35,993 nucleotides of DNA from Psammoneis japonica (GCA_008632985.1 QPGO01000282.1:38377-74369), one strand, 5' to 3'. Positions 1 to 32,559 are shown, numbered from the stretch's first letter. Translations and numbers: made by a program. The notes: a model not told the origin generated them from the letters alone.

Positions 1-499
1 AAGCCTGTGGGAAAGCAAGAAGCTTGTGCAGGCCCCCAGCTGAGGTTTGGGAACAAGGCTTGAAAGAAATCTCCACCCAAGAATGAATGTTTGCACCCAA
101 GCACAGGAGCAGGGTCTGGGCAATTGAGTGGTGACAGAAACTCCAGTGTTGTGGAAATTGTGAGACTGCTCTGTGCAAGCTCAAGCATTTGGTGATGCAT
201 GGCTTCTGTGCCACTCCTTCATGCAATGAGATGTGCCAATTGTGGGGCAGTCAGCTGGGTCATGATTTGCCTGTGCAAAACTCCTGTGGATGACAGCAGG
301 CTCACAAGGTGCTTCTGCATGATCAGCTGCACCTGTGGGCCAGCCTGCAGACACAACATGTGCTGTGCAATTTGGTGTTGCCCACTGCACAGTGGCACAG
401 GATTGTCGTTGTCCAAACCAGCTGGTGCTGCACAATTGTCCAGGTGAACAATTCTTGATGAATGCCCGCCCACTCCATCTCATTGGTGGGAGCTGCTGA

Positions 500-1500
500 T
501 GGCATGGCTGCCAACAATCTGGGCTTGTGCCCTGGTGCTTGTGCTGCTGCTGCTGGCACCAAGAATTTTGTCATGCACCAAAGAGTGCAAACACCTTTGA
601 AACATGCATCAATCTGCACAGCTGCCACTGCGTGCTGGGTTGACCCAAAGTCTGGTCAACCTCACCTGCTGCCAGCCCACAAGGCCATGCACTTTGAGGG
701 CCAGATGAAAATTTTGCTCTTCACCCCAGCCAGTTGGGCTCAAATGGGTTGGGGCTGCTCATGATGCACCTTGCAAGCTTGACAAGAGCAGCACTCTCCT
801 CACTCTCAGCTGCATTCTTCCATGGTGCTCAACAAAAGTCACAGCCCTGCTGCAATCAGAGGGAGTTTTGCTGGAAATTGAATCTGACAAACCTTGCTCA
901 GGTGAACCCAGTCAATCTTCCATGGCTGGAGCTGACATTGCTGCCGAAGTTGGAGCCCTTGTTGACACTTCTTTGGACAAAAGGAGGGAGATGTCCAAAG
1001 TGGTGCGGCGGCACTCCAGAACAGATCGGGGAAGGCAAGGACCCCCAAATGTGGTTGGCTGTCAGAAGATCACACGTCATTTGGGTGGAAGAAACTCTCT
1101 TGACTGTGACACGGAGTCAAGAGCCTCCATCACATCATGGGCAATGGCAAGAATTTCACAGCCAATGTGGAAATGGTGGAACAAGATGTTTGAAGAAGTT
1201 GTGCGAGGCACACGATGCACCCAGTTTCCAAGAGCATCTCTTGACAATTGCCTGGACAGGATGTGCAGTGCAGAAGCTGACATGCCGTTCAAACCAGAGC
1301 AGATGCACTGAGTTGTCTTTGCCTGAAAACTTTGCCTCTGATCCTGTCAGCACACAAACAGTCTCCTCCCCAACAGCACTGACATGGAACTTGAGTGCCT
1401 TCTCTCCATTCCCTCTCTGCTCATGGGGTTTGGTCGATTCCAGCCACTGAACCATCTGTGCAACAACCAGGTTGCTCTCAGGCTTTGCAACCCCACTGGT
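500..1500 (+). mobile_element. Heavily mutated Ty1/copia (CoDi-like) pol relic: protease-adjacent region to start of integrase
   Basis: Frameshifted pieces occur in the expected order: 'GTKNFV', 'TAATACWVDPKSGQPHLLPAHKAMHFEGQM' (cf. CoDi 'TAATAY.DP.TG..YIL..HEALYFG..M'), 'PSQLGSNG', 'LPWLELT', 'GFGRFQPL'. Positions expected to be Tyr read C or H. Recognised from memory; ends are approximate. Confidence 0.55.
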
Positions 1501-1589
1501 TGGAGAGCAGATGTGTGTCATCTCCCCAATGAAATTGCAGTGGGCATGACAGCATTTCCCCAGACCTTGATGGGGAATGAGAGGAGCTC

Positions 1590-3150
1590 GGTCAAATGGG
1601 ACAAAAAGCAACAGCTCAATGCATCCCCAGCACATCTGAGATGGCCAGTTCCTTCCCATTGAGACATGTGGAGTGCCAGTGCAGTGGCAAGGATCCCTTC
1701 ATGCCGTGCCTGGACCAGTCATTCATCCCCAACAACTGCAAATTGTCTCGATGCCTTTGATGCGTTTCTGTTTTGCTGACAAATTTCAAAGCTCTCTGCC
1801 GTCATCCATTTGGGTGAATGACAAAGTGCAGCTGTTCATTGACATTTTGGCATGGGCTGGGCATCTGACCACAGTGATGTCCCCAATCCGGACACCACAT
1901 GTCCAGAGCCTCCTTCTCCAGTGCAAATCTCGTTCTGTGCATGCAAGTCATCACCGCTGCTCTGATGCACTTTATGATTTCCTGCGTTGGGCATTGTGCA
2001 TCTCCAAACCTGTGCACGAGATGTTCCATGCTTGGCATGCCTGAAACAAAGCCACCACCAACCCAGCACAGACACACGCCCTGCAAACGCGCCAGACTTG
2101 CAAATTCCTCCTCCATGCTGAGCAATGCAGAAAAGGCAAGAGCAAAACCAAGGATGTGTGGCCAAGGTGTGCTTTGACATGCAAGGTCACAACCAGCTTT
2201 GCCCACAATTTCTTTGTCAAAACACAAAGGAACAATGGCCGACCTTGATGACACAAACAAGAGTGCACAATGGAAATGTTGCATGAGCCCTGTCTTCGCT
2301 TTTTGTGTGGCAAAACACAGATGGCCACAGCATCATGCAGCACAAACTGCAAGACACCACCACACATGAAAATCAAGAAAATGGGCTGTGACACCTTGAC
2401 GACTCTGCCCATTCTGCAGCAGGTGGTGCAGACCCTGAGTGCAACAGCAAGAAGAATTGCAGTGGCAGAAAAGGCAAAGCCAAGGCCACGCAGCACCCCG
2501 CTCAGGTGGCTGCAATCCACCTGGACCTTTGGCAGAGGCGGAGATGTGTTGGCAGCTCCATCACACAAAATGTGTGGGGTCAAACTGTGCCACGTTCCAT
2601 CTCAAATGATGTCTGCAACAGCATCAAACATGACATTTCCGGTTTCTGGATCTTTTCGTTCCACAAAAATGAGCAGCTGGCAGTGTGCATGGTCAAATCA
2701 AGAATCTCTGTTGTCAGGTCAACGGCAATGGGACCCTTGTTTCCCACAAAGCTTTGCATTGACAGGGTGCTCTCAATGGGAGATGCTGTCAAAGCAAGTG
2801 ACGGGGCACAAGCAGCCAATCCCACAGAGATTGTGGAATCATGCAGAAAGATCCCCAGATCTGGAGACTTGAATGTTCTTTTGACTGGAAGCTGATCTCA
2901 CGTGATGGGATGGCTCTGAAGCTCTTGCATGCTCAAAACCAATGTGTCTGCTTCCACCAGAGCTCACAAGTTCCTGGCATTGCAGTCTGGACAAAAAGGA
3001 TGGAACATCTGGAGCTTGTTCCACGAGCCACTTGCAGGGTGCAGGTCATCTGAGAAAATCCACGCACTGTGATCATCTCCAACGATCCCCGGCAACAGCA
3101 AACCAAGGGCATCAGGTTGTTCAGCCAAGGGAGAGATTCCAGGCCGCAAA
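1590..3150 (-). pseudogene. Class C (7tm_3, GABA-B-like) GPCR pseudogene of the type expanded in diatoms
   Basis: Minus-strand fragments in colinear order: 'WIFSD', 'GLAAC', 'DGAANTSPPLPKVQVDCSHL', TM1 'LRGLGFAFSATAILLAV', 'RVVKVSQPIFLIFMC', 'SAIVPLCFD', 'GCDLACQSTPW..ILGFALAFSALLS', and a possible TM7 end 'LLLFVP' (~1600). Many frameshifts. The part below ~1750 is uncertain. Confidence 0.75.
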
Positions 3151-3200
3151 ACAGCAAGGTGTTGCCCAGGTTTTTACACCATGTTGCTGGAGCACATTTT

Positions 3201-3280
3201 AGAGCGGGAGGGAAGAGAAGAGGAGAAAAAAGGAAGAAAAAGAAAGAAGAGAAAAGAAAAGAGAAAAAAGGAGGGAGAGA
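3201..3280 (+). repeat. Polypurine (A/G) low-complexity tract
   Basis: About 80 nt composed almost entirely of A and G, read directly. Confidence 0.9.
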
Positions 3281-3529
3281 CTCTGTTTTTTCGCCTTGCA
3301 ACAAAGCATTCGAAAAGCATTGTGTTTTGTGGACATCGGCATTGAATTTCAAATGTCCATTTTAGAAGCTCTTTTGCAGGGAGCTTGAGACCATTTCAGA
3401 TGTTTTTAGAAGCGGCTTTGGAGCTCGAAGTTCTGCGCATGTGTGGGCTTGCCAGAAATGCACGTGTGCAATTTGTGCCAATCCACACACACCAGAATTG
3501 AGCAAAAAAGGCCTTCCATCACTTTCCTT

Positions 3530-3652
3530 TCAGCCAATCAGAACCAAACAAAAGCAAGAGATGTTTCCCCTCAGCCAATCAGAAGTCAGCACGTTCATCA
3601 CGTCTGTCATGCGTCAGCCCCGTCAGCGTGAGAATGAGCCTTTGGCCAATGA
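3530..3652 (+). promoter_or_regulatory. Cluster of CCAAT boxes and CGTCA motifs (promoter-like or TE-terminal sequence)
   Basis: TCAGCCAATCAGAA occurs twice (3530-3543, 3571-3584) and GGCCAATGA once (3644-3652), with two CGTCA motifs between. Function is inferred only. Confidence 0.35.
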
Positions 3653-4761
3653 CTCCCTGCATCACTCGTGCCAGTCGTCAAATCTTATTTAGATTCACTC
3701 GCATCTAAAGATGAAGGTTCAACTGATCTCTCTCATCTCGGCCTCCATCTCATCGACAACACTGCATTGTGGCATGCAAGCACAGTTGCGTCTGGCATGT
3801 GATGCGATTTGCCTGAAAATGTCAGGCAACGACAATGTTGTTTGCAATCTTCAGGACCTGACAAATCTGAATGCACAATGCACTGACCAAGCATCTGGCC
3901 GTGGGGAGTTTGGGGCGGGGAGCAGGGGTCAGGAAAATTCGAGAACCTGATGGACGACAGACGTGGTGCTCTCTCTCTCATCAATGCATTGCATCACTCA
4001 TCACTTTCCAAGAAGGAAACAGCAAACCATCACCGTCGTCACATCCTTTGGGTGTTCCTACAAGCCAGAATGTCTCCATTGCCAGAGGACTGAAGTGGAG
4101 GTATGATGCTCATTGCACAACTGATTCAACAATGACAATGGAATTGTGGTGTGTTTTTGTCTGACGAATGACACGTGGCCGATTGACATGTTTTTTTCTC
4201 TCCTTGTTTTCCGTTGTGTGCTGTCGCATTTTCCGAATTGTCCTTGAACCTTGTTCTCCGCAGCATCCTAAAATTTCTTTATGTGCTTACATGCATGCCA
4301 ATGGGATTCCAAGAAAAGCACTTTTGGCGCTTCTTTGCTTCGAAATGTGAGACTGTTGTGGCGTGTGGTGGTGTGTTTGGCCGCCGATGGTGCGAAACAG
4401 CGATCAACATCACCAACAACACAGCATGCTTTTAACAGCCCCACAAACAAACAAAAACAACTGTCTTGGTGCTTCGAACTTTGGTGAAGTCGTCAGGAGC
4501 AAACTCAAAACGAGCAGACTTTAAACACACGCCGTGGTCATGACGATGAAGATTGTAGCGGCTTCCGAGTTTGGATTCGAGATGATACTTGGATCAAACC
4601 CAGCACTGGTTTAAATTGTGTCAAAACCAACTTGCCACTTCGCGGACACGATTCCCTGCACGCAAAAATCTGAATGCGCAAGCACGCACTTTCCCACACA
4701 CTCTTCGTCTCACAATCGCAGTTCTGGCAAGAAAGTAAAGTGTCGCATCAACAATGTCACC

Positions 4762-6005
4762 ATGTTGTACACTTTCCTCTTCTTGAATGCCTTGTTTCTC
4801 ATCGGCAACTATGGCTCAGCCATTTCTTGCCTGCGCAGGGATCCTAAAGAGTTCCTGGTGGGCGCGGTGCTCTGCTTCGTCTTGTGTTGCTTGTTGAGGA
4901 ACATCGACGTCTGGATCGTCGTCCGAACCTTTGTGGTTGCATTTCTCCTCTGGCTCCACACGATCCTTACTGCGGCATTGTCCAAGCAGACAAGGTGGAA
5001 TTGTTCTGAATTTATCCAGCCTCCCCACGTTCCTCGCAGCCACTTTGTGGAGGCGCAATGCAAGACGCATCGTTACGACGTCAATGAGCCATTTGCATCG
5101 TAAGTTTTTGTTGCTCTTGTTGCACTGCCTGTTGTTGTGACGCTTGTTTCTAACGTCACCTTCTTTCTTTGACATTCCATTTCTTGCGTTCAGCTCTGCT
5201 GACAGCACTGGTTCCAACAGTGGAGTGGCTCACGAGCCGTCTTCAAACTACAACCCCCCACCCTCCGTCGATTTTAAAGAAAAAGACAACGTCAAAGCTT
5301 CACCTCCCAAGCCGAGCCTTCCAAAGTGCCACTGCAACGTCAAACCAGAAAAAGACAACGTCCAAGCTTCACCTGTCAAGCCGAGCCCTCCAAAGTGCCA
5401 GTGCAGAGTCGGTGAGAGAGTTTTGCACACGAGTGGCAATGCCAACGACGTCGCTTCTGCCAAGATCATGGCACTCACCGGACGACAAAACTCGCACTAC
5501 ACTGTCCTCTTCTCTAACAACAGAGAGAGGCAGACGGTTGAAAAGAATCTATCGCCCATCCCAAAAACACCAACGTCAGAAAAAGACGACATCGAAGCAT
5601 CGCCTCACAAGCCGAGCCCTCCAAAGCACCAGTGCAAAGTCGGCAAGAACATCAGCACACGAAAGCAATGCCAACGACGTCGCATCTGCCAAGATCATGC
5701 ATTCACCTTGACGACAAAACTCCGCACTACACCATCCTCTTCTCCAACGGCAGAGAGCGACAGACAGAAGAAAAGAATCTATCTCCCGCCCCCAAAAACC
5801 GACGTCCAAGTACGAGAAGGGCCAAGACGTGCATTGCTGCCGCAACAACGCTCGTGTGTTGGCCAAGATTCTCAGGGTGTACTTTGATGATGATCTCGTG
5901 GCGCATTACGACATTAAATGCATGGATGGGAGCGAGAGGCAGACGATTGACAAGCACCTGGAGGAATGTCCGGCTCCCGAGTTGCAGGGAGTGCGACGAG
6001 GCTGA
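4762..6005 (+). pseudogene. Spliced gene: hydrophobic N-terminus plus three copies of a small Tudor/SH3-like repeat; frameshifted and partly TpA-mutated
   Basis: ATG at 4762. A GTAAG...CAG intron at 5100-5193 joins the two ORFs in frame. Repeats: 'CRVGERVLHT..AKIM..HYTVLFSNNRERQTVEKNL', 'CKVG..AKIM..HLDDKTPHYTILFSNGRERQTEEKNL', 'YEKGQDVHCC..AKILRVYFDDDLVAHYDIKCMDGSERQTIDKHL'. TGA at 6003-6005. The fold assignment is inference. Confidence 0.6.
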
Positions 6006-6702
6006 GTTTTTTGCTGTTGCGGGTGAAGAAGATCGTCTGTGATTGTGCATCTTATTTTTCATTCAGGCCTGCATTGTCGTGAAGACGTGTTGGGCAGAAA
6101 TTGTTTCAGATGTCAGCTTGTGGTGCGCATTCACTTGTCATTTTGGTGCTCGAGTTCAACTGCAGCAGCAAAGTTGGAAGAGGCTTTCCAGATCTCGCAT
6201 TCAGGCACGCATTGTCAAGACGACACATGTGAGTTGGCCGCCGTTTCGGAACTGGTTTTGTGTGCCGGCAGAAGAGAATGCAAGATCCAGTTCGCCTCTG
6301 AAAGCTAATGTTGAACAGCAGCAACACTTGTTCCAATGTTCAAGTCGAAAACCATTGCAGGACTGGCGGAATCGAATGAGAAAACGAGAAACAAACATTA
6401 GACGGGCTTTTTGCGTGCAAGGTAGAAGCTCACGGATTGTCAGGTTTAGTGTGGCGGGCATGGGGCATGGGAGTGGGGCTGGGGCTGGGGCTCGAGAGGG
6501 ACCAGTTAGCGTGCTGTAGAGCATTAGGCCTGCAGATCAAGATTGTGAAAACAAAACAAAAATTAGAAAACGCGTTGTCAGAACATCTCTTTTGCACTTT
6601 TGAAAACTCGCTTTCACATCGTCCTGCTTGCAATCATCCGCTGTCAGTGCAAGTGAGGTAACCAAGACTGTCATTGAGTGCAAGGTTGTTGGTTGAGAGC
6701 GT

Positions 6703-7364
6703 CTGCTTTGTCCAAAGATTGCCGCACAGGTTGCGACCATCAGCATTGAGCATCTCATGTACCGCACGAATCCACCAGGCCCGCTTCTGGCTTGGTCGGC
6801 AATCTCAAGGGCGGTCTCCACCAGAATGTCAAGGATCTTCGCATCGTCAAGGACCCAACAAAGGATAAAAAGTATCCCAAGTAGCTCGGGGCCGGTTGCA
6901 GATCATTTTGTGCCGAGGAGGGTGCGTCCGTGAAGGTGTTGCTTGAATCGGAACGGGCAATTCTGCACATCTCATTCGACACTTTGCCCACGCTTGTCCA
7001 TTGTCGCCTTGTGCTGATGCCATTAACGACACAGCCACACACTGCTTTGTTCAAAGATTGCCACATGCCGCAGGTTGCGACCATCAGCACGAAGCATCTC
7101 CTGTGCCGCACAAATCCACCAGGCCCGTTTCAGGCTTGAACGGCAATCTCAAGGGCGGCCTCTACCAGAATGTCAGGAACTTCATGTCGTCAAGGACCCG
7201 ACAAAGGATAAAAAGTGTCCCAAGCATCTCGCGTTCGGTTGCAAATCACTTGGTGCTGAGGAGGACGGGTCCGTGGAGGTGTTGCTTGCATCGGCCGGGT
7301 GACACTGCACACTTCACTGATGCTTTGCCGATGCCTGTCCATTGGCGCCTTGTGCTGATGCCAT
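6703..7364 (+). repeat. Diverged direct duplication, ~320-340 bp x2 (6703-7024 and 7043-7364)
   Basis: Alignable by eye through shared blocks such as caggttgcgaccatcagca, aatccaccaggcccg, acaaaggataaaaagt and cgccttgtgctgatgccat. Confidence 0.9.
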
Positions 7365-7382
7365 GGACGATGCAGGCCATGC

Positions 7383-7786
7383 CTCAGAACAGCAAGCGCT
7401 TCTACGCTGAACTGTGTGCACGAGAAGAGCATTTTGCGGAAGGCACATCCTTCATGATGTTGGGACTCGGCGCTTCGAGTTGTCATTTCTTCTGCAAGGC
7501 CGCCATGGATGTGGAGGACAGGATGTTGGAGTTGGGAAAAAAACTGGCGACGGTTCGGCGGAAGATGCAGGCTGTGCTTCAGAACGGCAAGCGCTTCTAC
7601 GCTGCACTGTGTGCATGAGAAGCGCCTTTTGCGAAAGGCGCATCCTTCATGATGTTGGGACTCGGCGATTCGAGTCATTGTTTCTCTTAAAGGCCGCCAA
7701 AGATGTGGAGGACAAGATGTTAGATTTGGGCGCAAAAAAGCCTGCTTCCCACGGGAACTGGCGACGATTCGGCGGAAGAGGGCAGG
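7383..7786 (+). repeat. Diverged direct duplication, ~190-210 bp x2, of the flavodoxin segment
   Basis: Shared blocks gcaagcgcttctacgctg, catccttcatgatgttgggactcggcg and gatgtggaggaca at ~7392-7520 and ~7587-7715. Confidence 0.9.
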
Positions 7787-8610
7787 AAGAAGGACTTGCG
7801 AGTGGCTTGACGGCGTCTGGCCCACACTTGATGTCCCCCCCAAGAGTTCCCGCACGTTGCGCCGGTCAAGGTTGGGTTTTGGCTTTGTCCAATTCTGCTT
7901 GCAACAAAGGACCAACAGGACGAGAACCAATGCTTTACATCCGAAAAGATGTGCCCCGAGGACTGTGGCCGAGACTTCCGTAACATCAAGTTCGACAAGG
8001 ACGTTGACTAGAAGTCGGCGATCCGCTCGACATCTTCCCTCTGCTCAGCGGACTATGACGAACGTGCCGTCGTCAACATTCACGCTTGGGAAATGGATGG
8101 AGACGTTTCTCTCGTCTGTCTCTTTGCCAGTGCTCTTGATCTGTTCGGAAGCCAAGCACTCACTTCATGCAGCAGTTTGCAACCTTTGAGACCGATCCAG
8201 AACAACGCAAGACAATGTTGGATCCGAGCTTTTTTGCTAGAAAGAAGCAAAGGCTAACGGCAACAGGTGCGGGTGCAATTTCACTGCTTCGATTCGAGAC
8301 GGCGCGTCCTCCTCTGCCAACCCTTCTCGCGATGATTCCATTGAACAAACCGCATGCCTGCTCTGTTGCCAGTTCGCCATCCGCTGGCAAGGATTGCATC
8401 AAGCTCTGCATGTTGATCGACACTTGGTGCGCGGACGGCATGATTTGTCCAAAAAACAAAACCAACGTGATAGAAAGGATCGCAGATGACGATCGCAGTT
8501 CTAGCTTGGTTTTGAGACAGCGGTGGGACGACGGCGAAGCGTCATCGCCAGACCGCCAGATTCAAATCTGCTTCGCCACTGGCTGGCTGGAGGGTGGAGT
8601 GGCACTGCAC

Positions 8611-8842
8611 TGTTCCAACGCTTTCACTTCGACTCATTGTGTGGCTAAATGTTTCGATTCAATGATTAAAATTTCAAAAGATGCCGACGAAACATCAAAA
8701 GTGCCTGAAAATTTCAAAAGATGCCGGAGTTCAACGCACACACCTGTTCCAACGCTTTCACTGCGACTCATTGTATGGCTAAATATTTCGATTCAAGAAG
8801 ATGCCGACAAAACATCAAAAGAGTGCCTGAATAGAAAATTTC
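8611..8842 (+). repeat. Direct repeat, ~100 bp x2 (8611-8715 and 8745-8842)
   Basis: Both copies begin tgttccaacgctttcact and contain agatgccgac.aaacatcaaaag. Confidence 0.9.
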
Positions 8843-9170
8843 GAAATCCGCCGTACACACGCTGTATGTCTGTCTGTCTGTCTGTCTGTACATAAACGTA
8901 AACAGAAAGCACAAAAACCCAAACGCCAAAGCAGTGAAAGGATGCGAGAATGCGATGCGGGATGCGGCGGAAGCGGAAGGAGCTTGTGCGTGAAGTAGAG
9001 TATCCAAGAGCAAAAAAGGGTTGATGCGAGTGTGCTAGTAGTCTAATAGCAACCTCCTTATTACCTTTAGAACTACACCAGTGATCTTGTTGACCCATAT
9101 CGATTGTTCTTCATTCTGATTGGGTTCAAATTTGTGAAAAAATCCCGCATCCAACGAAAGATACAGAAGA

Positions 9171-10281
9171 ATGAGCGTCAGCCACGAAGCGAAAACGAGC
9201 ATGAATGACGAGGACGAGAAAGCGGTCCTTGCTATTTTGAAAGCTGCCAAAAAGTCCGATATTATGGATCTCGATACGTGTACCAAGATGGATAAAAAGA
9301 CGGGTCGAGTGACGGAACTCAGTCTGGGTCGATGCAAAGAACTGTCGGAGATTCCTGCCGAGTTGGAGACATTGACGGAGCTCGAGCATCTCAACCTTCG
9401 AATGTGCACCAGCCTGAAAACGTTACCACCGCAATTATCAAAGCTGGCAAAACTGAAACGATTGGATCTTCCGGGATGTAAAAATCTACAAACGATACCC
9501 AGTGAGGTGGGACAGCTGTCGGAACTTGTAGAGTTGGATCTGGGTGGTTGCGCGAAACTCGAAGAACTTCCACGCGAGATTGGAATGCTGCATAGACTGG
9601 AGAAACTGAACTTGTCGCGTTGTCGAAGCTTGACAGGACTACCCTCAGAAATCGGGGCTCTTGAGAATTTAAAAGAGCTTGATCTAGGAGGCTGCACCAA
9701 GGTCAAGTCGTTACCACCCGAGATTGGCCAACTGAGCAAGCTAACGAGCCTTTCTCTTTGAGTTGCACACAACTCACCTTGTTGCCTCTAGAGATTGGTC
9801 AATTGTCGTCTCTCTCTACCCTTCAGTTGGATGGGTGCGAACAACTGAAAATGCTTCCCAGCAGCATTTCCAACCTGTCGGAACTCAAATCCCTGAGTCT
9901 CAATCTTTGTACGCAACTCAAAGCTCTTCCGACGTATATTGGCGAGCTATCCAAGTTAGCGATACTGGACCTTCGAGGGTATGAATGAAATCGATACCAA
10001 GGAGATTGACACTGACAATTCAAGAAGCTTGACCTCATTACTGTCAGTTGATCGGTCCTCCGAAGTGGAGGGTGGGGTCAGTTGGCAGAATGTAGGAATA
10101 TCTGGACCTTCGAGGGTGCATCGAATTGAAATCGATACCCAAGGAGATTGGACAACTGACCAATCTCAAGAAGCTTGACCTCAGTTACTGTCAGTTGATC
10201 CGGTCTCTACCAAAAGAAGTGGAGGGGCTCAAAGGTTGCAATATTATAATTGTTGGCACCTACATGTCTCCAGATGCATGA
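9171..10281 (+). CDS. Intracellular leucine-rich repeat protein (24-aa LxxLxLxxCxxLxxLPxEIGxL repeats), frameshifted in this assembly
   Basis: Regular LRRs in ORFs 9171-9761 and 9758-9988, joined by a 1-nt shift at ~9760. A deletion-riddled stretch follows (~9980-10100), then clean 'LDLRGCIELKSIPKEIGQLTNLKKLDLSYCQLIRSLPKEV...PDA' ending at TGA 10279-10281. Confidence 0.85.
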
Positions 10282-11840
10282 ATAGTAGTGTTTACATATC
10301 TCTAGTAGAGTTTCCTCGCAAAGCAACAACGCTTGGAGGCTTGCCATGAGGCTAAAGTGTGAATACACGTAACTACTGTATCCGGATTCTCCGCGCGTTA
10401 GCCCAACATGCCATACGGGATCACTATATATATAATATTTTGGACATCATTTGAATTTTCGAGAAGAGTTGCCGACAAACTAAATGTGGGTTCTTTGCAT
10501 CCGCACCAACTTCTCGAGTAAAATACGAAAAGCAGCATCTCACGTTTGGAGTTTTCGATTTCTTTGGAGCTCACACTGTATGTCCGCTATGCTTGGTGTA
10601 GGTTCGTTGTTTTAAAGACAACGTTAATCACAACATGGAAACTATCTAAACCAAGTAGCGATTCGCTACAGCACTTAGCATCGGGCCGAGCAAGCGAAAA
10701 CCGACCCTGGCGTGTGCTTGTGCAGAAGGCGAAGGTGCAAGCAGCAATTGATGAGAAACGTGCGGCGCGAAAGAGGAAGAGCACGACAGAAAGGGTAAAA
10801 AAATCCAAGAAAGAGCTCAAAGAAGAGAGGGAATCATACATATAGTGTCTAAGCAAGATAGAGATGTCTTTTAGCTGCGGCAACAACGCCATGGTGTGTT
10901 TTCATGCATCATGCATCGTGGATCTTCGAGATCGGGGCGCGCGCTCGTTTTGCAGTGACGTTTTGAGGTTTTGTAGTGACGCAGTACTTAGGGCTTATAC
11001 AAGTCCAGTTTTTCAAATGACGTTGTTCATATCAAAATATATATGGATATAAATTTAAAATTAATAAAAATAATGAGTTAGCCGGGGTAGGGCTAGTTGG
11101 TCGCGCACGTTTGGGTTCGATGCAGCCGTGCAACTAGCCATACCCTGCAGGAAGAGCTGTTGGTGGCGCGCGAGCAGAAGCAACAAAGCAAAGAACACGG
11201 CGTGGGTCAAAACGTTGTAAAATGACGCAACAACAAGCAGCGAGAAGAAACCCAACTTGACCCATGAATACAGCGCATACATATTGTCCAACCACTTCAA
11301 TAGTATCTCGTATTCCCAGCTTGTAGATGAGGGGACGGCGTTCGCGTTTCTCGCCATGGTGTTGTTGTGCGTTATCGTGTTGTTTGCGCGCGAAGACCAC
11401 GGGATCTATTTATCCGATAATAACTCTGTTTTGGTAATAGTAGATGTTTTACTGTATTCAATCTGAGAATATTTTGAGAAGCGCTTCGGGGCGACCCTGT
11501 TCGCACCGTTAAATAGAAATTTTTTTTATCCAGATTCCAGAGTTCTTTCGGGGTGTTCTGTCAGACTTTTGAATTGGTATATACATATATTAGAGGCCTT
11601 AGCAAAATCAATGATATGTAATAGCCTCAGAGACCAACATAAATTTATGTTCCATGTAGACCACGTAGATTGTGTACCGGCGGAAAATCCACGGCATGTC
11701 AATCACTCAGTAGTAATTCTACGTATATCCTACTTACACCTCACACACGTACACACACCTACACAGTCTAATAACCGCGCACACGTGCGCGAGAAAAAAG
11801 TCCAACACACACAACACACCCGCCCCCCGCCGCAACAACC

Positions 11841-12527
11841 ATGGCGACTGACACTCCTGCTGACGCTGCTCCTGAAGAGTCGTCATGGGTATTGAAATCC
11901 TTGAAAGAGAATCCTCCGCCAGACGCGTTAGCAGTAGGATGGATCTTACGACAGAGCCGATCTATGCCGGGAACGTACTACTACTACCATCAAGAAACGG
12001 GATACAGCCAGTGGGACCCTCCGCTAGATCAGCCAAAAGAAGAAGAACATGCTCCTCAAGAGATTGCAGTAAAATCAGTTGATAAAGAAACAAAGAAAAG
12101 ACAAGAAACTCGCGTTGCAGCGCAAGAAGAACAGCCTCCGCCGAAGCGCTCCAAACCGACAAAGCATCAGCCGAAAGAAGTTCGCGTCTTGCACTTGCTC
12201 AAGAAACACAGGGGCTCTCGTCGACCCGCGTCATGGCGAAATCCCAAAATTACCAGCACCAAAGAAGAGTCAACGGCGGAATTAGAAGAGTTGGCTGCCA
12301 TTTTAAAGGAATCACAAACGCCTGAAGAAACAAGAGCGACCTTTGAAGAGCTTGCCCGAACCGAGTCGGATTGCAGCTCGGCGAAACGGGGTGGCGATTT
12401 GGGATTTTTTGGTAGAAAGAAAATGCAACCCGCCTTTGAGAAGGCAGCGTTTGATTTGGAAATTGGGGAGTTGAGTGGTATTGTGGAAACATCGAGTGGG
12501 GTGCATATTTTGCTGAGAATTGGATAA
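11841..12527 (+). CDS. PIN1: Pin1/Ess1-type parvulin peptidyl-prolyl cis-trans isomerase with N-terminal WW domain
   Basis: WW domain 'GWILRQSRSMPGTYYYYHQETGYSQWDPP'. Phosphate-binding loop 'HLLKKHRGSRRPASWR'. PPIase motifs 'ESDCSSAKRGGDLGFFGRKKMQPAFEKAAF' and 'VETSSGVHILLR'. Intact 228-aa ORF with an accATGG start context. Confidence 0.97.
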   Translation: MATDTPADAAPEESSWVLKSLKENPPPDALAVGWILRQSRSMPGTYYYYHQETGYSQWDPPLDQPKEEEHAPQEIAVKSVDKETKKRQETRVAAQEEQPPPKRSKPTKHQPKEVRVLHLLKKHRGSRRPASWRNPKITSTKEESTAELEELAAILKESQTPEETRATFEELARTESDCSSAKRGGDLGFFGRKKMQPAFEKAAFDLEIGELSGIVETSSGVHILLRIG

Positions 12528-13764
12528 GCGAAGAAGACAGTCGTTCTTGTTGAATAAGAAAGTATGACAGGAACGCTACTCTAGAGGTCCATGGCGTGGG
12601 GAAAGCCCATTGTGTGGCTGTGCACACATACAGTATCTATAATTTTGTTCCCATAAACAAGTAGTGAAATACTTTTCATCGGAGGTTTCTAGCTCGTGGA
12701 TTAGTCACCTCAAGGACATTGTCTACTCTAGCAAGCTCTACGAGGTATGCTTTGAAGCATTCTCGAAGTAGTCAGTCTCAACACAACGCAGCCGCTCTGC
12801 GCTCCTTCGCATTGTCGACGGGTGGTCCAGCAGTGTATCATCATGAGAGAACTGGACGCGATGCAGAGGATATGTTGTCTTGGGCTGTCCGAAAGAGCCA
12901 ACTACCTCATTTACCTACTACAGATCAGAGGATATTGTTGGATTGGCCGGAAAATGCAGATAGATGATTTAATGCCTGACGTAGCCCTTGTCGTCCACCA
13001 TAAACTGAAGGATTGCCGAGGCTTCATCATGGTCAATAGCCCCAACCCCTTCATGAGATCGTCGACTTCGTTGTTGCGGGAGCAGCAATGACGTGGGCAT
13101 TGTCAACTTTGAATGTAACTTTTCCTTGGTTATTCGCCAGCGTCGTCACCGAGACCATCTTCCGAATCATCGTCACTGTGATCCCGCAACGTTCGATTCA
13201 GATGGAACTCCCCAGCCGCAATCACGACACAGCCTCGGTATCGTCTTGATGATTCACCATAGTCGTTACTTTGTTACGTGATTATGTATGCTTCACCAAG
13301 ACAAATCATCGAGCAGATACAGCAGTGATGATTCCAGTTCCTTCCTCCTTCGTTTCAATTTGCCCATCGCACACCAAATTTGAAGCAAAAAGTTGCTTTC
13401 CTATCCGCAAACCTCATCGTTGCCTCGATACAAAATGAGTTTATTTCGACAGCATCCTCTTGAGACGCTGTGCTGTTGTCCAATCATCAACTCAATGGAG
13501 AATATGGATGTTTATCCGCGGCATCATGGCTCATGGCGATCATCCAACAACTCGGAGGTGGTACGGTATGAAATCGTACGCATTTTCCCGTAGCATCCAA
13601 TAAACAATATTAAGATACAGTTATAAGATAAAAAATTCGAACCGTTTTCATAGGAGAAAAATTCAATGAACTTATTTCAAGGCTTTGGAGTTACATACGA
13701 AAATCGCCAGCCGTCATTTCTTACATTAATTTTTAACCATTAATTTTTTATATTCATTAGACGC

Positions 13765-13836
13765 TACGGGGAATTCAACGCAATTCTCGGTATGGTATGC
13801 CACGGGGAATTCTACGTAATTCTCAGTATGGTATGT
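13765..13836 (+). repeat. 36-bp tandem repeat x2 at the left edge of the TpA-free block
   Basis: tacggggaattcaacgcaattctcggtatggtatgc (13765-13800) followed by cacggggaattctacgtaattctcagtatggtatgt (13801-13836). Confidence 0.9.
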
Positions 13837-14680
13837 GACGGCATGATGTCGTCATCATGATGTCATGACGCCATGCAGAAGTAAGTGCACCAGGGCCCTA
13901 ACTAACTGTGCCGTACAGCCAAAATTCTACCCAAGAAGTGTCATGCACGCATTGTGTTGAAATGCTTTTTCAGTTCTTCTCTTTGCATTGCCCTTTTGTT
14001 GCTCTGGCTCATGTTCATTTTGTCCCAAGCAACATTTTGTCATTGCAGAGCAACAGTTTTTGCAGTGCACAGCAACGGCCAAAAAACGGGCAGCTTCATT
14101 TTCGTCAGAGCAACATTTTCCATTTGGCGCAAAAACATTTTCATCTCTCCGCTTTTGCTGTCCCTCCTTGTTTCTCCCCATGTGATTTTTGCATGGGTTC
14201 GATGCCCATGTCAATGATTTGCTGTGATCCTGTCTGTCTTCACGTGTTTTTCTGTGTGTCGTGTCCTTTGCGGGGGATCAGCTCAACACAGAAAGCTCCC
14301 AGCTCAAAGATCCGTTGATGAATTTGTCAAATTGGCTCACAAAAATTGATGCTCTTGTTCACCCTGCATGATGGTGCACCTGATCAGGAGTTCAACCATC
14401 CACTGAATCCCCGCCGGTTGTTTTTCAGCACAGTGGTCTCCCCCCTGTTTGGCACCTCCTTCCTCCGCAGCACACCATGGTGAGCTCTGCTCCTCTCCAT
14501 CATCTTCGTTGACATGGGTCTGTGACAACAGAGTCTGGTTGTCCTTGGAAGAAGGGTGCAAGCTGCAGATGGTCTGTGAGCGATGGAAAAAAAAACTGTT
14601 GCTTCCAAAAGCACAACTTTTCCCTCCACCCATCCATCTGATTTGGAGCGGCTTGATGGTTTTGTTGTGGCAACTTTCAG

Positions 14681-16900
14681 ATGTTCATCAACCCCATGTC
14701 TGCTCATGCAATCAAGCACTGCAGAAGCAGGGTCCACTCTGGCAAGTCCTTGGAGGATCTCAACACTGAGCTTGAAGCAGACAAGAAGCCTTGGAGACTT
14801 TGTGCTTCTCCCAGGTTTGCTTTCTCTGTTTTCCCAGCTGCTGAGGAGAATTGTGAGATGTGGTGCAAGAAGTTGTGGTGCTTTTTTTCAATGGTTGGCA
14901 ATTGTGACTCCATGGTCATGCTGTTGCCTCACCCACCAGCTGGCTCAAAGTGCAAAACTGTTGCGCACCGCCCCCTTCAGCATTTTGCGGTGCATTGCTG
15001 CCAGGCCTTCAATCAACCATTGAAGTCTTCCTTTGTTGACTCTGTTGCCTCTGACCCTGTTTTGGACATCCACGGCAACAACATCAGATGTGAAGGTTGC
15101 ATCAACAATGCCAAGGGATTTGCCAACATTTGTGCCACCTTGACAAATTCTTGGTGGCAAGCTTGGGACAAATGGCAGCTGCAGAGAGCAGCGTCAAGAC
15201 TGTTTGCAGTTGCTTCATGTGCAAGGGTTGCATTTTGCACCAGTTCATGCCACAATGTTGGAGCACAGGTCTTCCCACAATGACCACACAGCACAAAGAC
15301 CTTGTGAGGTGGGTTGAGCAACAAAACACAGCCAGCGGCTGTCAACCAAAGTCAAAGTCGCCTTTGTTTCCTTCAGACCTTTGGGACATTCATGCCTGCA
15401 TGATTTCCAAAACTGCACCTGGTGGGCTCAATGATTTTGCCAGGTGCACTCAGGTGTTGGCTGCCATCCATGTTGCAGCCAGGTTTGATGGTTGCCAAGA
15501 CATTCATGTGGTGGAAGACTTTGGTTTGTTGCACAAAGACTGGATGATTGAAGAAGCTCCCTTTTTCATTGCCAACATTGCTTTGAGAGTGAAGGAAAAG
15601 ACAGATGGTGACTGGCTTCACTGCATGATCAAGTTCAAGGATGAGACTCCCCAGCTCTGTTTCCTCAGGCATTTGTTGGTGCACGTTCATGTGCCAGGTG
15701 CAAAGGAAGGCTGCATCTTTCCCTCTTCTGCAGACTTGGCAGCACTGTCCATGGCGCTGGCGCGTTGACTCTCAGTCTGAATGCAATCCTGTGTGCCCTG
15801 TTCCTGCCACGTGTGTGTCCATCTCTCGCTGGCTTGTGGAGAGACTTGAGGAAAACTGCAAAAGAGGTGACAAAGCTGATGTTGGCTGCCGCTCTCTCAG
15901 GCACACCTTTTGCACGTTTTCAGTTCTTGGAGGGTGGGAGGAGAGGACATTGAACAAAAGGAGTGCGTGCCACAGGGATTGGGAAACCTCTGAGAAGCAC
16001 ATGAAGAATTGCACAAGCGCTGCAGAGGACATGATGAAAGATCCTGTTCCAAGGAAAAGGAGCAAGATCTGGAAATTCCAAGATGTGAAAATTGAAAGAA
16101 GAGCACAAAGCAGGAGCAGGCTCAACAGCATGATGCCTCGCTCATGTTTCAAAGCACTTTGTTGAATGAGGTGCTTCTTGTGATGCCAGATGACCCAAAC
16201 TGCAAGAACCCCCGGCAACTTTTGCAAAAGAGCAGCTGCTCCATGACCTTGGCCAGTCACTCTTTGGATGAACAATTGCACAGCTCTTCTGCAGCAATTG
16301 GTTGTCTGACATGCACCCTGCTGTGTGGAGCTTCAAAACTTGGTGCACAGCATGGTTGAAAAATTGTCTCATCCAGTTTGTTCTTCAATGTGGGCTGCTC
16401 CATTTGCAGCCATGCTGGGCACAATTTCTCCACAGATTCCACTTGTTGGTCACTCTGTTGCTCCACCTCTTGCCAATTTTTTGCTGAGTCTCCAGCCCTC
16501 TTTTGTTCCCACCCAACTGTTTGCACATGTTGCCACCAACAACACAGACCGCTGTTTTTTTCTCTGTGACTTGGGGAGTGCTTGTGGGCTGGACAAGGAG
16601 AAGGTGGCCAAGTTCAAGAATCTTGGCTTCCACAAACAGGCCATGCAGCTTGAGGCTCTTGCAATGGACATTGTGCAGGTGGGGTCATCTAACCCAGCCA
16701 AGAGGCCACAAACTGTGGACACTGATTTGTTTGTCAGGGCGCACAAGATGGGAAGGAAGAAGCTGTTGTCTGATCCCAAAACCAGAAGCTGGCTCAGCCA
16801 CAACCATTTGAGATTTTTCAACTGTTTTGTTTGGTGCCACCACCTTTCCATTGAAAGCCTCATCGGATCGCACACCTGTGCCACAGGCAGCAAGTTTCAT
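14681..16900 (+). pseudogene. Crypton-type (CryptonS-like) tyrosine recombinase, inactivated
   Basis: N-terminal 'LWCFFSMVGNCDSMVMLLPHPP...PVLDIHGNNIRCEG' and 'GCILHQFMP..STGLP...SPLFPSDL'. Catalytic-domain motifs in order: 'AARFD' (R, 15481), 'VKEKTD' (K), 'LCFLRHLLV', 'GCIFP', 'GCRSLRHTF' (HxxR box), 'SACH...SEKHM' (H...Y box, Tyr position = CAC 15998-16000). Several frameshifts. Confidence 0.82.
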
Positions 16901-17240
16901 CATGACTCATGCAACGCCAGGTCTCAATCATCTGCACCACAATCTGTGTTGCTGGCCCAGATGCTGCAGTTTTTTCCTTGACCTTTGGCCAAAATCTGTG
17001 CTTTCCATTCAACCATCTTAGCCCTCAAATGCTGCACACATCATTTCTTTGGCACAGCGGATGAGCAGTTGTTGCTTTGATGCAGCCCCTTTTCCCACTG
17101 ACATTGTTGTTGGTGTTTTCGTGGCCGCCACACTGGCAGAGAAGAAAAGGGATGTGCAAGTGCAAAGTTTTCTTGAGATGGACATTGGTGACTCCATTGG
17201 CTCCCAGGTGAGCCATGGCAAGAACCATGGAAGGGCATTG

Positions 17241-17890
17241 GAAGACCATTCTTGTGTCAACTCAGCCACTTGTGGCTCTTAGATTGTGCAGGATTCAGCC
17301 ACGAATGCCCAGCTGTTGAACAATGGGAAGTGCTTTTGGAACAGTGCAGCTGCAAAGTTGCACTGTGATGGAATTGGGTGACTGCCTTGGGTCCAGGGGA
17401 AGTCAGCAAAAACCACCAGCGGGCAAGGGAAGAACATTCTTGTGCAGACGTGACCAGTTGTTGCTCTGAGATTGCAGAACTCAGAGCTGACAACCCTGGT
17501 TTTGAATGGCAGGAAGTGATTGTGCAGCAGGGCAGCTGCAAAGTTGAACATTGGCAGATCCATTGTGTTGCTGGGGAGTCAGCAAGAAGCATGGGCAGGC
17601 ATTGGAAGACCATTCTTGTGCCAACACAGCTGCGTGTCACTCTGAGATTGCAGGATTCACCCAAGACAACCTGGCTGTCAAACCATGGGATGTGAGTTTG
17701 GAGCTGTGCAAGTGCAAAGTTGTCTTTTGATGGACTTGGGTGACTGATCAGAGTCCCAGGGGAGCTGGCAACACAACCACCAATGGGTGCTGGAAGACCA
17801 TTTTTGTGCAACCACAGCTGCTTGTTGCTCTGAGATTGCAGGGTTCAGCACAGACAACCCAGCTGTTGAATGGTGGGACAACTTGCTTTT
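17241..17890. repeat. Four diverged tandem units of ~175-190 bp (probable relic of a repeat protein)
   Basis: The anchor gaaga(c/a)catt(c/t)ttgtg...ctct(g/t)agattg recurs at ~17241, 17430, 17605 and 17793. Confidence 0.85.
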
Positions 17891-18783
17891 GGAAAAGGGA
17901 AAGCAAAGAGTCAATTTGTGATGGATGTGGGCATCTCTGCTGAGTCTCCAGGGGGGGGGGGGGTGGCAACAAGCATGGAGGGAAGCTGAGTGACCATTGC
18001 GGCAACTGTCTCATTTTCTGAGTGACTCTGTCACATTGGTCCCTTGCAGAAAGTGCGAGCCAACAGCTTGCCAGTGACAGTCATGGGTCAAGGCATTGAA
18101 ATGACATGAAGGTGCCCACACAATTGCAGATGTGGACAATGAAAGGGAGACAGACAATGAGTGGGAGGCAGACATGAATGATCATTGGCAGAAAAGGCAA
18201 GAAAAATGTGCAACTCTGCACGGACGCATGAACTGCAGAAACAAACATCAACAAATGAAGATGACATTAAATTTGTGTGCCCAATTGTGGGAAAGCAACT
18301 GTTGCCTGTGAGCCCTTGTCATTGCAGTCATCATGGGAACTCTCTGTGCAGTCTTTGCCATGACAAACAAAGCCCACACAAACTTGCATCAATTCCATGT
18401 TTCTTGCACTTTTCAGGTGATCATTGAGGCTTTCCAGGTGCTCCGACGCTGACTCTGCAATGGAGAACTTGGGGTGAACTTCCTCTCCACCAGAGTGCAC
18501 GACAGAGAGGTGATGCACAAACAACATTTCTTTCTTGTCTCCCAGCAAGTCATCCTCAGAAATCTCCTCATTGTCACTTTTCAGAGTGCCACAAAGAACC
18601 CCCATTGGGTGCAGGAGCCTTTCCTCCACCACGAGGCCAAATCTGTCAACCCACAGACCCTTTTCATCAAAAAGGGTCTCATCAAATTTGCAACAACTGC
18701 TGCATCTCTGTTTGTCTCAACTGTCTGCTGAGAATTTTTGGCCAAACATGTTGCGCTGATTGACTCGAACAATTTGTCAACAT

Positions 18784-19203
18784 GCAGCATGCATGCAGAC
18801 AAAAGGTCATTTTGTCACGCCCTTTGTGACATTCAAAGGCTGCAACACGTCGCCGTGGTGCACCAACTCTTGTCAGCAGCTGTGTGTTGCACTCCTCCCC
18901 ATGCATCACGCGTCCATGCGGCTCTTTGCCAACGTGTGCTGACACTGCACGGTTTTGGCGGAACAGTGTGGGCACGTGCGAAGGAACACATCGACAGTGA
19001 TCAATGTTGCTGCAGACAACTCCCACTCAGGGTTTCGAACCCCTGGCCTCCTGCCCAATGGTCACACGATGAACCACTCCGCTGTGAATTCACAACGCAG
19101 CATGCATGCAGACAAAAGGTCATTTTGTCACGCCCTTTGTGACATTTAAAGGCTGCGACACGTCGCCGTGATGCGTTGGCTCTTGTCAGCAGCTGCACGT
19201 TGC
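18784..19203. repeat. Direct repeat, ~107 bp x2 (18784-18890 and 19097-19203)
   Basis: gcagcatgcatgcagacaaaaggtcattttgtcacgccctttgtgacatt is identical in both copies; the remainder differs by transitions. Confidence 0.92.
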
Positions 19204-22200: not shown

Positions 22201-22470
22201 ATTGGAGCTCTGTGTGTGGCCATCTCAACACATGAAAAAGTTGTTGCAAATGTCTTGCAGCATGAGAGCTTTTGTTGCCAGTTCAAAAGAGTTCTCTTTG
22301 TGCAAGACAAGAAAAAAATTCCAATTTGTTGCATCACAGGCTCCCAGTCACCAGTCAACAGCCGCACACAAACAAGCAGAGAAGATTTTGTTGGCACTTT
22401 TTTGCTCATGAGAAGCCAAACCAAAAACTTCACTCCAAAGACAAGAGCGGCCCTTCACATTCTGGGGCAA

Positions 22471-25128: not shown

Positions 25129-26643
25129 AGTGCCCCCCCCCCCCCCCCGAGCATGTTGCTGCCAACACACAGCAGCAAGCAGTGGTTGCACAATGTGGTG
25201 GCTCTTTTCAAAAGATGCAGCTGTTCAGAGAGGCAGCTCAAGCCAGGCCAGAGATGCTGCATGGGTGCACATCAGCTCTGTCTGTCAGTGGAAAAAGATT
25301 TTGGCAGAGGCCCAATCTTTGCAAATGTTGTTCGCACTTTCATCTTTGGCAAGGCCACAGCTTGAGAACCTGGAAGAGGCACCCAGAGAAACAGACATGC
25401 TGGTTGGCGCCCACCACCGTGTGGGTGCTTTGTTGGATGTTGTGCAGCCGCAGACCACCGTGCTCACTCCAAGAAGAAGCAAAGCTGGCTTTGAGCTGCT
25501 TGCCACAATGAGAGCTCCTGGCCAGTGTGACATCCTGCTGCCACCCACTTTGGGCCAAAAGAAGAGTTTTGATGGCACCGACATGAGGTGTGCCGATGGC
25601 ACGCATGGCCCAGCTTTGGACCTGCAGGGACAAATGCCCTCCATTTCTGATGCTGAGCACAAAAACATGAAAAGGCAATCTGCAAAAATGCCAGTGCTTG
25701 CCTTCCTGCTGGTCGACCATGAGAGTGCTCCCGCTGGCTTGCCAACCCAAGATCCTGCCGCGCGCGCTGGCATGTCCTTCGCGCATGTGGCAGCACCGCT
25801 CCACCTGGCAAAAACAGCCACAAGGCAACAAGGGCTGAAATCTTAAGCCAGGTTGATGCCAGCACAAAAAAAAACAAAAGTGCGCACATCTGAATGAGCA
25901 TAGCTGCACTGGGGGGCCGGAGACAATTTGAAAGGCTGAAGCTCGCCTGGCAAGGGGGGCCAGGGGCCAAGGAGCAGAGTCGCGCGGCCCGCAGCTGTGC
26001 CAACAAGGGCCGGCACAATGCCAGAGAAAGAATGCTCCAAAGTTTGGTTGAAGTGCAGCATGCAAATGTGAGTCCTTTCAGCACACGTGCAAGACTGCAA
26101 CAAAGAAACAGTGCCAGCCTGAAGCTGTGCTCTTTTGACGATTGATGGCTGCTGGTTTGGCTGGACCGCGAATGTGAGAAACCCCGCACCTGCAATGATG
26201 TGCTGGCCCGACTGCTGCTGTGAACCTGGGTTGGCAGTTTTCCACTGGGCCCCAATTTTCTTTGCCCAGCACTGCTTCTTCCTCTCTCAACTCGACAGCA
26301 TTGTGCTGCGCACCCTCACAACAAGCAGCCGTTCACATTGTGCGTGACTCAGTCATCACGGGCGCGAGTTTCGGTTGCCAACGCGAACATCAAAAAATAC
26401 AGCATCTTGTTCCATAACTATTTATGCCCCTAAACACTCGACAGTTCAAGACACAAGTGCAATTAACCACAAGATAGATTACTAAATAGGACAATGCCTT
26501 TTCGACAGTATAATACGTCTTGTCCACGAATGTCTTTAAGTATTCTCCAGAGAACGGATGAGGGGGAAAAAAGAATCGATACTTTCGCATTCTCGTTTTG
26601 CCTCACACAAAATTAATCGGTTTATCTTTCGACAACGGTTACC

Positions 26644-32491: not shown

Positions 32492-32559
32492 TTCTTTGGC
32501 AGACGTTACACTGTCATATGGCAGTTCATAGAGAGAATCCTACTCGTCTTCGCGAAGAA

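Follow-up and report, generated by a model that had tools for sequence, protein, structure and literature searches.

The stretch analysed here, called the window below, comprises 35,993 nt from the diatom Psammoneis japonica (GCA_008632985.1 QPGO01000282.1:38377-74369). It consists of DNA of ordinary composition and of domains that have lost much of the dinucleotide TpA and, in their inner parts, also CpG (Table 1). Between the first of these domains and a region of ordinary genes lies a segment of about 4.7 kb, the halo, in which most of the TpA is gone but CpG is kept, and in which the recognizable genes are broken relics.

Table 1. Domains, gene relics and duplications in the window
Feature	Position	Strand	Description
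Block 1 core	1..3170		TpA erased, CpG strongly depleted
Transition zone	3171..4100		Both dinucleotides intermediate
Halo	4101..8770		Low, flat TpA plateau; CpG kept
Tudor/Agenet-like repeat relic	5278..6005	+	Units 5346-5576 and 5577-5806, diverged third to 6005
Tandem duplication a1/a2	6703..7370	+	About 330 bp each, 82.5% identity (BLAST)
Diflavin-reductase gene relic	7376..8550	+	Pfam Flavodoxin_1, FAD_binding_1
Short tandem pair across the right edge of the halo	8610..8831		Copies 8610-8709 and 8744-8831
Ordinary gene region	8771..13928	+	Pfam LRR, WW, Rotamase; LRR open reading frames (ORFs) 9138-9985, Pin1 11775-12524
Block 2	13929..26397		TpA erased, step edges, CpG depletion graded inside the edges
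DHHC palmitoyltransferase relic in block 2	23656..23796	+	Pfam DHHC, sub-threshold; phmmer against PDB

Composition was judged against an ordinary baseline made up of positions 8771-13928 and 26398-35993 (14.75 kb), with expected TA and CG counts calculated as segment length times ordinary per-kb density. In the halo, TpA stands at 12.8/kb compared with 46.0/kb in ordinary DNA, so that 60 TA are observed where 214.6 are expected (Poisson P = 8e-36). CG is found 269 times against 249.4 expected (z = 1.2), that is, at 1.08 of the ordinary density. The same can be seen in 1-kb windows spanning 4001-9000, where the observed/expected (o/e) ratio is 0.17-0.28 for TpA (0.41-0.96 in ordinary parts) and 0.79-1.13 for CpG. 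Five windows within the halo have TA o/e of 0.14-0.26 and do not overlap with 14 ordinary ones at 0.45-1.01 (Mann-Whitney p = 8.6e-5); for CpG o/e, the comparison of the same five with the 14 gives p = 0.22. The ordinary region that follows (8771-13928) has TA o/e of 0.69 and CG o/e of 1.03. TG and CA each reach o/e 1.37 in the halo versus about 1.1 in ordinary DNA, and the GC content of the halo is 0.507. Overall, about 72% of TpA is gone from the halo, and about 88% in the sensitive contexts described below. The surviving CpG and TpA show no significant periodic spacing between 60 and 400 bp (top power 5.0 among 69 periods).

An external control for composition was taken from metagenome loci coding for relatives of the reductase whose relic lies in the halo. 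There are eight such loci, with 47-58% protein identity, and they are too distant for base-by-base polarisation, which limits their use to composition. In seven of them, the segment of about 930 bp homologous to the relic, placed by a fixed offset and with introns unchecked, has TA o/e of 0.33-0.80 and CG o/e of 0.69-0.93. The corresponding values for the copy in the window are 0.19 and 1.02. A TpA deficit with CpG retained over about 4.6 kb, which an earlier note had read from this DNA by eye, is thus confirmed: the two dinucleotides do not drop in parallel here, and TpA is not at a gene-like level.

The direction of the change can be read in three ways. The sum of the pyrimidine–purine dinucleotides (TA+CG+TG+CA) is 239.5/kb in ordinary DNA, 242.2/kb in the halo, 242.9/kb in the block 1 core and 232.8/kb in the block 2 core. 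Within this sum, TA in the halo is down by 33/kb and TG+CA up by 32/kb, the latter amounting to 171.7/kb compared with 140/kb in ordinary DNA and 229/kb in the block 1 core. The rise of GC in the halo is about the amount that conversion of TA to TG or CA would add. Tandem copies can also be compared: one copy has TG and the other CA at the same dinucleotide at 9 of 735 aligned positions in the halo, 21 of 906 in block 2 and 0 of 760 in ordinary DNA. At such a site, an ancestral TA (or CG) is one step away from each copy, while any other ancestor would require two steps. The a1/a2 copies alone differ, among other positions, at four sites with TA versus TG or CA and at three with TG versus CA.

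The same direction is visible in the encoded protein. At the 45 homologue-tyrosine cells of the reductase relic, counted over eight homologues and not independent of each other, Tyr is never found, while Cys occupies 20 and His five. Against the best homologue alone, nine tyrosines correspond to six Cys, one His, one Phe and one Ser. The conserved Tyr pair in GLGDSSYY, the flavin mononucleotide-binding loop of the homologues, reads CH in the copy at 7376-7543 and HC in the copy from 7571 onward. In the intact Pin1 control, Tyr is kept at 58 of 62 homologue-tyrosine cells and is nowhere replaced by Cys or His. Taken together, the mass balance, the TG/CA double differences and the Tyr-to-Cys/His replacements show that the change runs from TA to TG and CA.

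TG and CA are nearly equal in number in the halo (396/406), in block 1 (356/370) and in block 2 (1270/1278), and runs tests revealed no significant clustering of changes by strand. The TA sites that remain have a distinct sequence context. In ordinary DNA, 85 of 678 TA lie in TTAA or CTAA/TTAG; among the survivors the proportion is 21 of 60 for the halo (Fisher p = 2e-5) and 19 of 26 for the blocks (p = 1e-11). Relative to the expected density, survival in the halo is 0.94 for TTAA, 0.71 for CTAA/TTAG, 0.08 for ATAC/GTAT and 0 of about 21 for ATAT. Among the product trinucleotides, TGC shows the largest excess (+90, z = 6.9). The context bias shared by the halo and the cores argues for a single process that acted at different doses.

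Both blocks are depleted of TpA and CpG alike, with CpG o/e of 0.21-0.22, TpG/CpA o/e of 1.7-1.95 and, in the cores, CpG at 0.23-0.25 of ordinary density. The block 1 core has a single TA and 43 CG in 3170 bp; block 2 has 15 TA and CpG o/e of 0.22 between 13929 and 25579. Full depletion had previously been placed at 1-4100, but the core in fact ends near 3170 and the remainder is intermediate for both dinucleotides. The Pfam scan covered 150 ORFs of at least 90 aa across the window (E<=0.01) and, in addition, 128 ORFs of 45-89 aa in block 2. No transposable element (TE) or viral family was detected among the 150, and none above chance among the 128, where nine weak matches with E of 0.009-0.035 all fall under the cut-offs and are about as many as chance would give. 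For the block 1 core no Pfam family was found in ORFs of at least 90 aa (E<=0.01), the 50 short ORFs of block 1 lying outside the scan. Self-BLAST detected internal tandem repeats, no similarity between blocks 1 and 2 and no terminal repeats. The blocks may nevertheless be degraded mobile or viral DNA.

What could be recognized in block 2 is a piece of a DHHC palmitoyltransferase (Pfam DHHC E = 1.6e-5, below the cut-off; phmmer against PDB, ZDHHC9 8hf3_A, E = 5.4e-8). Where human ZDHHC9 has GKRNYRYF, the relic reads GKCNHQIF (R to C, Y to H, R to Q), so that CpG-type and TpA-type conversions are visible together within one motif. All recognizable relics in the window, namely the reductase, the DHHC protein and the Tudor-like repeats, are of cellular type, and relics of genes occur outside the halo as well as in it.

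The halo is a plateau rather than a slope. TA counts per 311 bp fail to increase away from block 1 (Spearman rho -0.42, p 0.11), and between 4800 and 8700 its density is flat or slightly falling. On the right, the halo ends between 8709 and 8774, i.e., within about 65 bp, at a point about 400 bp upstream of the first ATG of the LRR ORF (9171). This edge divides a short tandem pair: at two sites the copy at 8610-8709 has TG where the copy at 8744-8831 has TA (8774 GTAT, 8784 ATAT), and CTAA is kept in both. Block 2 is bounded just as sharply. On its left side, 26 TA occur in the 300 bp before 13900, the final one is at 13928, and the next follows only at 16690. On its right side there is a TA at 25901, none until 26398, and TA is dense beyond. 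In terms of expectation, the left edge of block 2 has 0 TA against 33 and the right edge 2 against 38.

CpG behaves differently across block 2, its density relative to ordinary DNA being 0.44 at 13929-14650, 0.23 at 14651-25579 and 0.80 at 25580-26397. The last of these intervals represents a second, smaller zone in which TpA is lost and CpG mostly kept; it is GC-rich (0.553) and might once have served as a CpG-rich promoter or first exon. The transition zone next to block 1 contains eight TA, five of them in TTAG/CTAA, and CpG at 0.56 of ordinary density; in 300-bp windows CpG o/e climbs there from 0.41 to 0.69, with TA o/e at 0.09-0.15. Short tandem repeats occur just outside two of the edges: a 36-bp unit repeated 1.9 times at 13766-13835, about 100 bp before block 2, and a (CTGT)n-type repeat at 8862-8890, about 100 bp past the halo. 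The affected segments have in common that they are dead DNA, form sharply bounded domains and adjoin promoters of intact genes, which suggests that the target may be set by the state of chromatin or by silencing.

The genes in the halo had been described as host genes. They are not working genes, since the reductase piece is truncated, tandemly duplicated, frameshifted and interrupted by stops, and the Tudor-like repeats are frameshifted. The reductase was aligned with a homologue of 813 aa (P0121) with flavodoxin (216-346), flavin adenine dinucleotide (FAD)-binding (402-590) and nicotinamide adenine dinucleotide (NAD)-binding (629-703) domains, which aligns to the relic only over residues 268 to about 600. 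Residues 268-490 are found at 7571-8149 in frame 2 with several in-frame stops, and residues 491 to about 600 continue from 8149 in frame 1, so that a frameshift must be placed at 8149. The flavodoxin half is tandemly doubled (7365-7565 and 7560-7779) and followed by the linker and the FAD-binding part, and both the N-terminus and the NAD-binding domain (629-703) are missing. Truncation, duplication and indels are beyond what a transition mutator can make. Searches against PDB gave one weak match to a sulfite-reductase flavoprotein with 6947-7615 and no match with 8140-8892.

The closest database relative of the relic, a protein of 240 aa (P0122) with 59% identity, has Cys at two conserved Tyr positions (PRACSIAS, LKCEIGD). 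Its origin may be a further copy, likewise partly TpA-mutated, belonging to some other data set.

The Tudor-like repeat has a 230-bp tandem unit with 82% identity between copies; unit 1 matches unit 3 with BLASTP E = 3e-5, and single-base indels shift the frame of unit 2. Its assignment as Tudor/Agenet is a lead from ESM Atlas only (score 0.77, query 5141-5884): no Pfam family was found for the region, with E<=5 adding nothing, and a homologue search among longer proteins with 5712-6002 as query gave none. The ORF at 5141-5887 remains open solely because neither TAA nor TAG can occur in it. Codons in these repeats had been quoted in the earlier note as signs of partial conversion. All of them are present, and TGC 5396/CAC 5627 and TGC 5402/TGC 5633 are in register between units. 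The homology of TAC 5811, which served as the unconverted counterpart, is not established: the match between units 1 and 3 starts 17 residues downstream of it and, by eye, it fits 5396/5627 better than 5402/5633. For 4101-5140 and 6043-6700 no homologue was found in Pfam (E<=5) or in homologue and ESM Atlas searches with 4615-5100. In TpA-erased parts the only stops left are TGA, and long ORFs overlap on both strands; one example is a minus-strand ORF of 284 aa at 7190-8044, antisense to the reductase relic.

In ordinary DNA, the Pin1-type ORF (WW and rotamase) has relatives with at most 67% identity over the full query and at most 83% over the rotamase part. Eight of the 120 relatives listed carry a full organism name, and all eight are diatoms (Fragilaria, Minutocellus, Odontella, two Cylindrotheca, Bacillariaceae sp., Thalassiosira and Cyclotella). 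A 90-bp tandem duplication with 100% identity is located at 32312-32492, beside a lipase-3 ORF on the minus strand (32710-33615). No tRNA or Rfam family was found in the window.

The relation between TpA loss and CpG loss is asymmetric: all CpG-lossy segments are TpA-lossy as well, and the converse fails. We fitted a common-dose model in which each of six segments received one dose and four site classes responded at fixed relative rates, with ancestral densities taken as ordinary. The estimated rates are 7.6 for sensitive TA, 4.4 for middle TA and 1.3 for resistant TA, relative to 1 for CpG. This model is rejected (deviance 58.3 on 15 degrees of freedom, p = 5e-7), chiefly owing to CpG in the halo (269 observed, 200 fitted); the other five segments fit well. 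To save it, the ancestral CpG o/e of the halo would have to be about 1.25, whereas ordinary 1-kb windows do not exceed 1.19 and the control loci lie at 0.69-0.93. The view that TpA loss is faster than CpG decay and separable from it is therefore borne out by the halo, by 25580-26397 and by the failure of a single dose. On our reading, TpA loss is the faster of the two and, within the halo, for the most part decoupled from that of CpG.

We interpret the window as containing sharply bounded, silent and decaying domains that are subject to two transition processes, with the halo being a separate, lower-dose domain of gene fragments that were already dead. We consider this interpretation somewhat likelier to be right than wrong. 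The first process would be a fast, TpA-specific and strand-symmetric hypermutation, in which TpA to TpG on one strand is TpA to CpA on the other. By analogy with what has been proposed for Bigelowiella natans, its agent would most likely be enzymatic deamination of adenine in DNA. It would hit ATAN earliest, with TTAA and CTAA/TTAG resisting. The second, slower process would convert CpG to TpG/CpA, most simply by deamination of 5-methylcytosine, and would act only in the interior of the domains. The halo would have received a uniform, lower cumulative dose of the first process and little or none of the second, which would fit an absence of CpG methylation there.

Several points weigh against this interpretation. 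It is derived from a single window of P. japonica, and the sequence of the blocks and the halo is that of the assembly alone. The expected counts assume that ancestral densities were equal to the baseline, and this baseline is imperfect, as the trinucleotide balance fails by class (TAT -117, TGT+ATG +49). Because of this imbalance, an error of the baseline enters the ranking of contexts as well as the dose fit, and only the contrast between resistant and sensitive contexts is relied on. Between about 3000 and 4800, TpA and CpG both recover gradually, as spreading would also predict. Finally, a transition separates the copies at 17 of 59 CpG-bearing aligned sites in duplicates of the halo, compared with 3 of 37 in those of ordinary DNA, and the halo may have lost 10-15% of its CpG.

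The surplus of CpG transitions in the halo duplicates is what one would expect if both processes ran as one clock, at a fixed rate ratio in all silent DNA, with TpA several-fold faster and the halo simply younger or less exposed. The strict nesting of CpG loss within TpA loss, the consistent order of the segments and the good fit of five of the six segments agree with such a clock, but the common-dose model built on it is rejected, the ancestral CpG it needs is above the ordinary maximum and above all seven orthologous loci, and the right edge of block 2 combines core-like TpA loss with CpG at 0.80 of ordinary density. We therefore consider a single clock unlikely, although worth keeping in view. 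The earlier note raised a different reading, a spread from TE chromatin into neighbouring genes. In this view, a TpA mutator recruited to TE heterochromatin at 1-4100 would leak over kilobases into working genes and kill them, with CpG methylation reaching less far. Block 1 does directly adjoin the halo, both dinucleotides recover gradually at 3000-4800, CpG-depleted DNA is always nested within TpA-depleted DNA, and the destroyed Tyr codons include catalytic positions, so that a mutator could in principle have killed the genes. However, TA shows no rise with distance over 4800-8700 and then goes up within about 65 bp, block 2 is stepped on both sides with no halo outside it, and the reductase piece lacks both ends and carries duplications and indels. 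Moreover, the ORFs scanned in blocks 1 and 2 yielded no TE domain, and the core of block 2 holds a relic of a cellular gene. With no rise across the halo, three step edges and genes already broken, spreading from TE chromatin into neighbouring genes did not stand up, and we regard it as decidedly improbable.

The remaining alternatives concern the origin of the changes themselves. Modification-linked base miscalls can be near-complete and context-dependent, as the erasure here is, and the sequence of the depleted parts comes from the assembly alone; modified bases (5-methylcytosine at CpG and some unknown modification at TpA) might thus have been misread as TG/CA in a long-read consensus. Such an artefact seems very unlikely to us, given that frameshifts, truncations, transversions and tandem duplications, such as mark genuine old pseudogenes, are also present in the affected genes, that the GC gain of the halo matches its TA loss, and that the same TpA to TpG/CpA spectrum was seen in B. 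natans by Illumina sequencing (10.64898/2026.01.13.699255). Four tandem-repeat families in the halo, with copies that mutated independently after duplication, would suit a homology-triggered attack on duplicated DNA, resembling repeat-induced point mutation (RIP). Duplication as the trigger was nevertheless rejected. An ordinary tandem duplicate of about 700 bp per copy (29458-30155/30154-30849; 87% identity by BLAST, 92.6% in ungapped columns) is untouched, with TA o/e of 0.76-0.91; two ordinary duplicate pairs combined keep 40 TA in both copies; and the edge of the halo splits a tandem pair. In addition, for most of the halo and the blocks the window contains no further copy, the chemistry is opposite to that of RIP, and the main target in B. 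natans is single-copy (10.64898/2026.01.13.699255), which leaves this explanation barely credible. Editing at the RNA level, with ADAR-like A-to-I hyperedited transcripts being reverse-transcribed and reinserted, would account for the U that ADAR prefers before the edited A (Discussion of 10.64898/2026.01.13.699255). Yet TG and CA are equal in number and interleaved, so both strands were affected, one of the edges runs in situ through a tandem pair, the scanned ORFs revealed neither a reverse transcriptase nor any retroelement feature, and in B. natans integrated DNA mutates where it lies (10.64898/2026.01.13.699255); the chance that RNA editing is the explanation appears very small.

If the window is read correctly as two-process decay of silent domains, TpA hypermutation is present in a second, ecologically dominant algal group, can reach near-complete erasure, and can be distinguished at one locus from methylation-driven CpG decay. 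The halo is of particular value as an unsaturated state, in which the 60 TA left expose the order of context loss. Candidate deaminases can be checked against this order as a footprint, and the halo should still mutate measurably. A more far-reaching possibility, which we put forward tentatively and consider doubtful, is that diatoms are a second lineage of the stramenopile–alveolate–rhizarian (SAR) group with a domain-guided TpA eraser, namely a DNA adenine deaminase that would be drawn to silent chromatin independently of cytosine methylation, make reversible silencing irreversible and act on silenced cellular genes as well as invaders; the neighbour rule (ATAT first, TTAA spared, TGC the top product) would be the footprint of the enzyme. 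In tRNA, the adenine deaminated by TadA and ADAT2 comes after a U and, in the bacterial substrate, before a C; this setting resembles the neighbour rule and fits the TA requirement and the TGC excess, but is a lead only. There is also a practical consequence for annotation: lacking TAA and TAG, depleted domains yield long false ORFs and over-predicted genes, while real relics escape domain searches.

The closest known system is that of B. natans, in which two integrated viral regions mutate about 1000-fold above the rest of the genome (Mettrop et al., 10.64898/2026.01.13.699255). According to the main text of that preprint, 230 of 231 changes in mutation-accumulation lines sequenced by Illumina were A to G or T to C, all on TpA; the genome contains clustered windows poor in TpA and rich in CpA+TpG and a set of coding sequences (CDS) nearly without TpA, and the authors propose that an ADAT2-like adenine deaminase is responsible. 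CpG, diatoms, sequence context and boundaries are absent from the same main text, and full-text searches of the literature returned no other report of TpA-directed hypermutation and none for diatoms. In both cases TpA alone is affected, giving TpG or CpA depending on strand; both strands are hit; the effect is regional, with little TpA and much CpA+TpG in clustered 1-kb windows; and, as reported for B. natans, many affected CDS cannot be annotated, some having ordinary cellular domains. The two cases also differ. The host here is a diatom and not a chlorarachniophyte, TA o/e in the cores is 0.01-0.02 compared with a Rho of 0.45 reported for their nucleocytoplasmic large DNA virus region, and the recognizable targets are cellular gene relics here and viral genes there. 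CpG depletion in the cores, neighbour-base bias and step edges are features of the present window. Mutation in B. natans was measured in lines, whereas here it is read from composition.

Other systems resemble parts of the picture. The CpG deficit of the cores (o/e 0.06-0.4), matched by an excess of TpG/CpA, is like that of methylated repeats undergoing CpG decay, and diatom TEs are CpG-methylated (PMC9998398). Many diatoms also carry DNMT4, which is related to the RIP enzyme RID and of unknown function (PMC9998398) and offers a lead solely to the CpG arm. CpG decay, however, leaves TpA alone and thus cannot explain a halo with intact CpG. RIP in ascomycete fungi is likewise an irreversible, transition-only and dinucleotide-specific attack on unwanted DNA that leaves gene relics behind. 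It differs in that it turns CpA into TpA and so raises TpA, whereas here TpA drops to o/e 0.01-0.21 and CpA/TpG rise, and in that it requires duplication (Discussion of 10.64898/2026.01.13.699255), whereas here a 2 x 700-bp duplicate is spared; neither C to T at CpA nor dependence on duplication was found. Restriction in animals by APOBEC3, on retroviral complementary DNA, and by ADAR, on double-stranded RNA, as outlined in the same preprint (10.64898/2026.01.13.699255), is similar in being hypermutation by deamination with a fixed neighbour preference, directed against unwanted nucleic acid. Those enzymes, however, act on single-stranded complementary DNA or on RNA and produce strand-biased C to T or A to G changes, while the changes described here are strand-symmetric and lie in chromosomal DNA in place.

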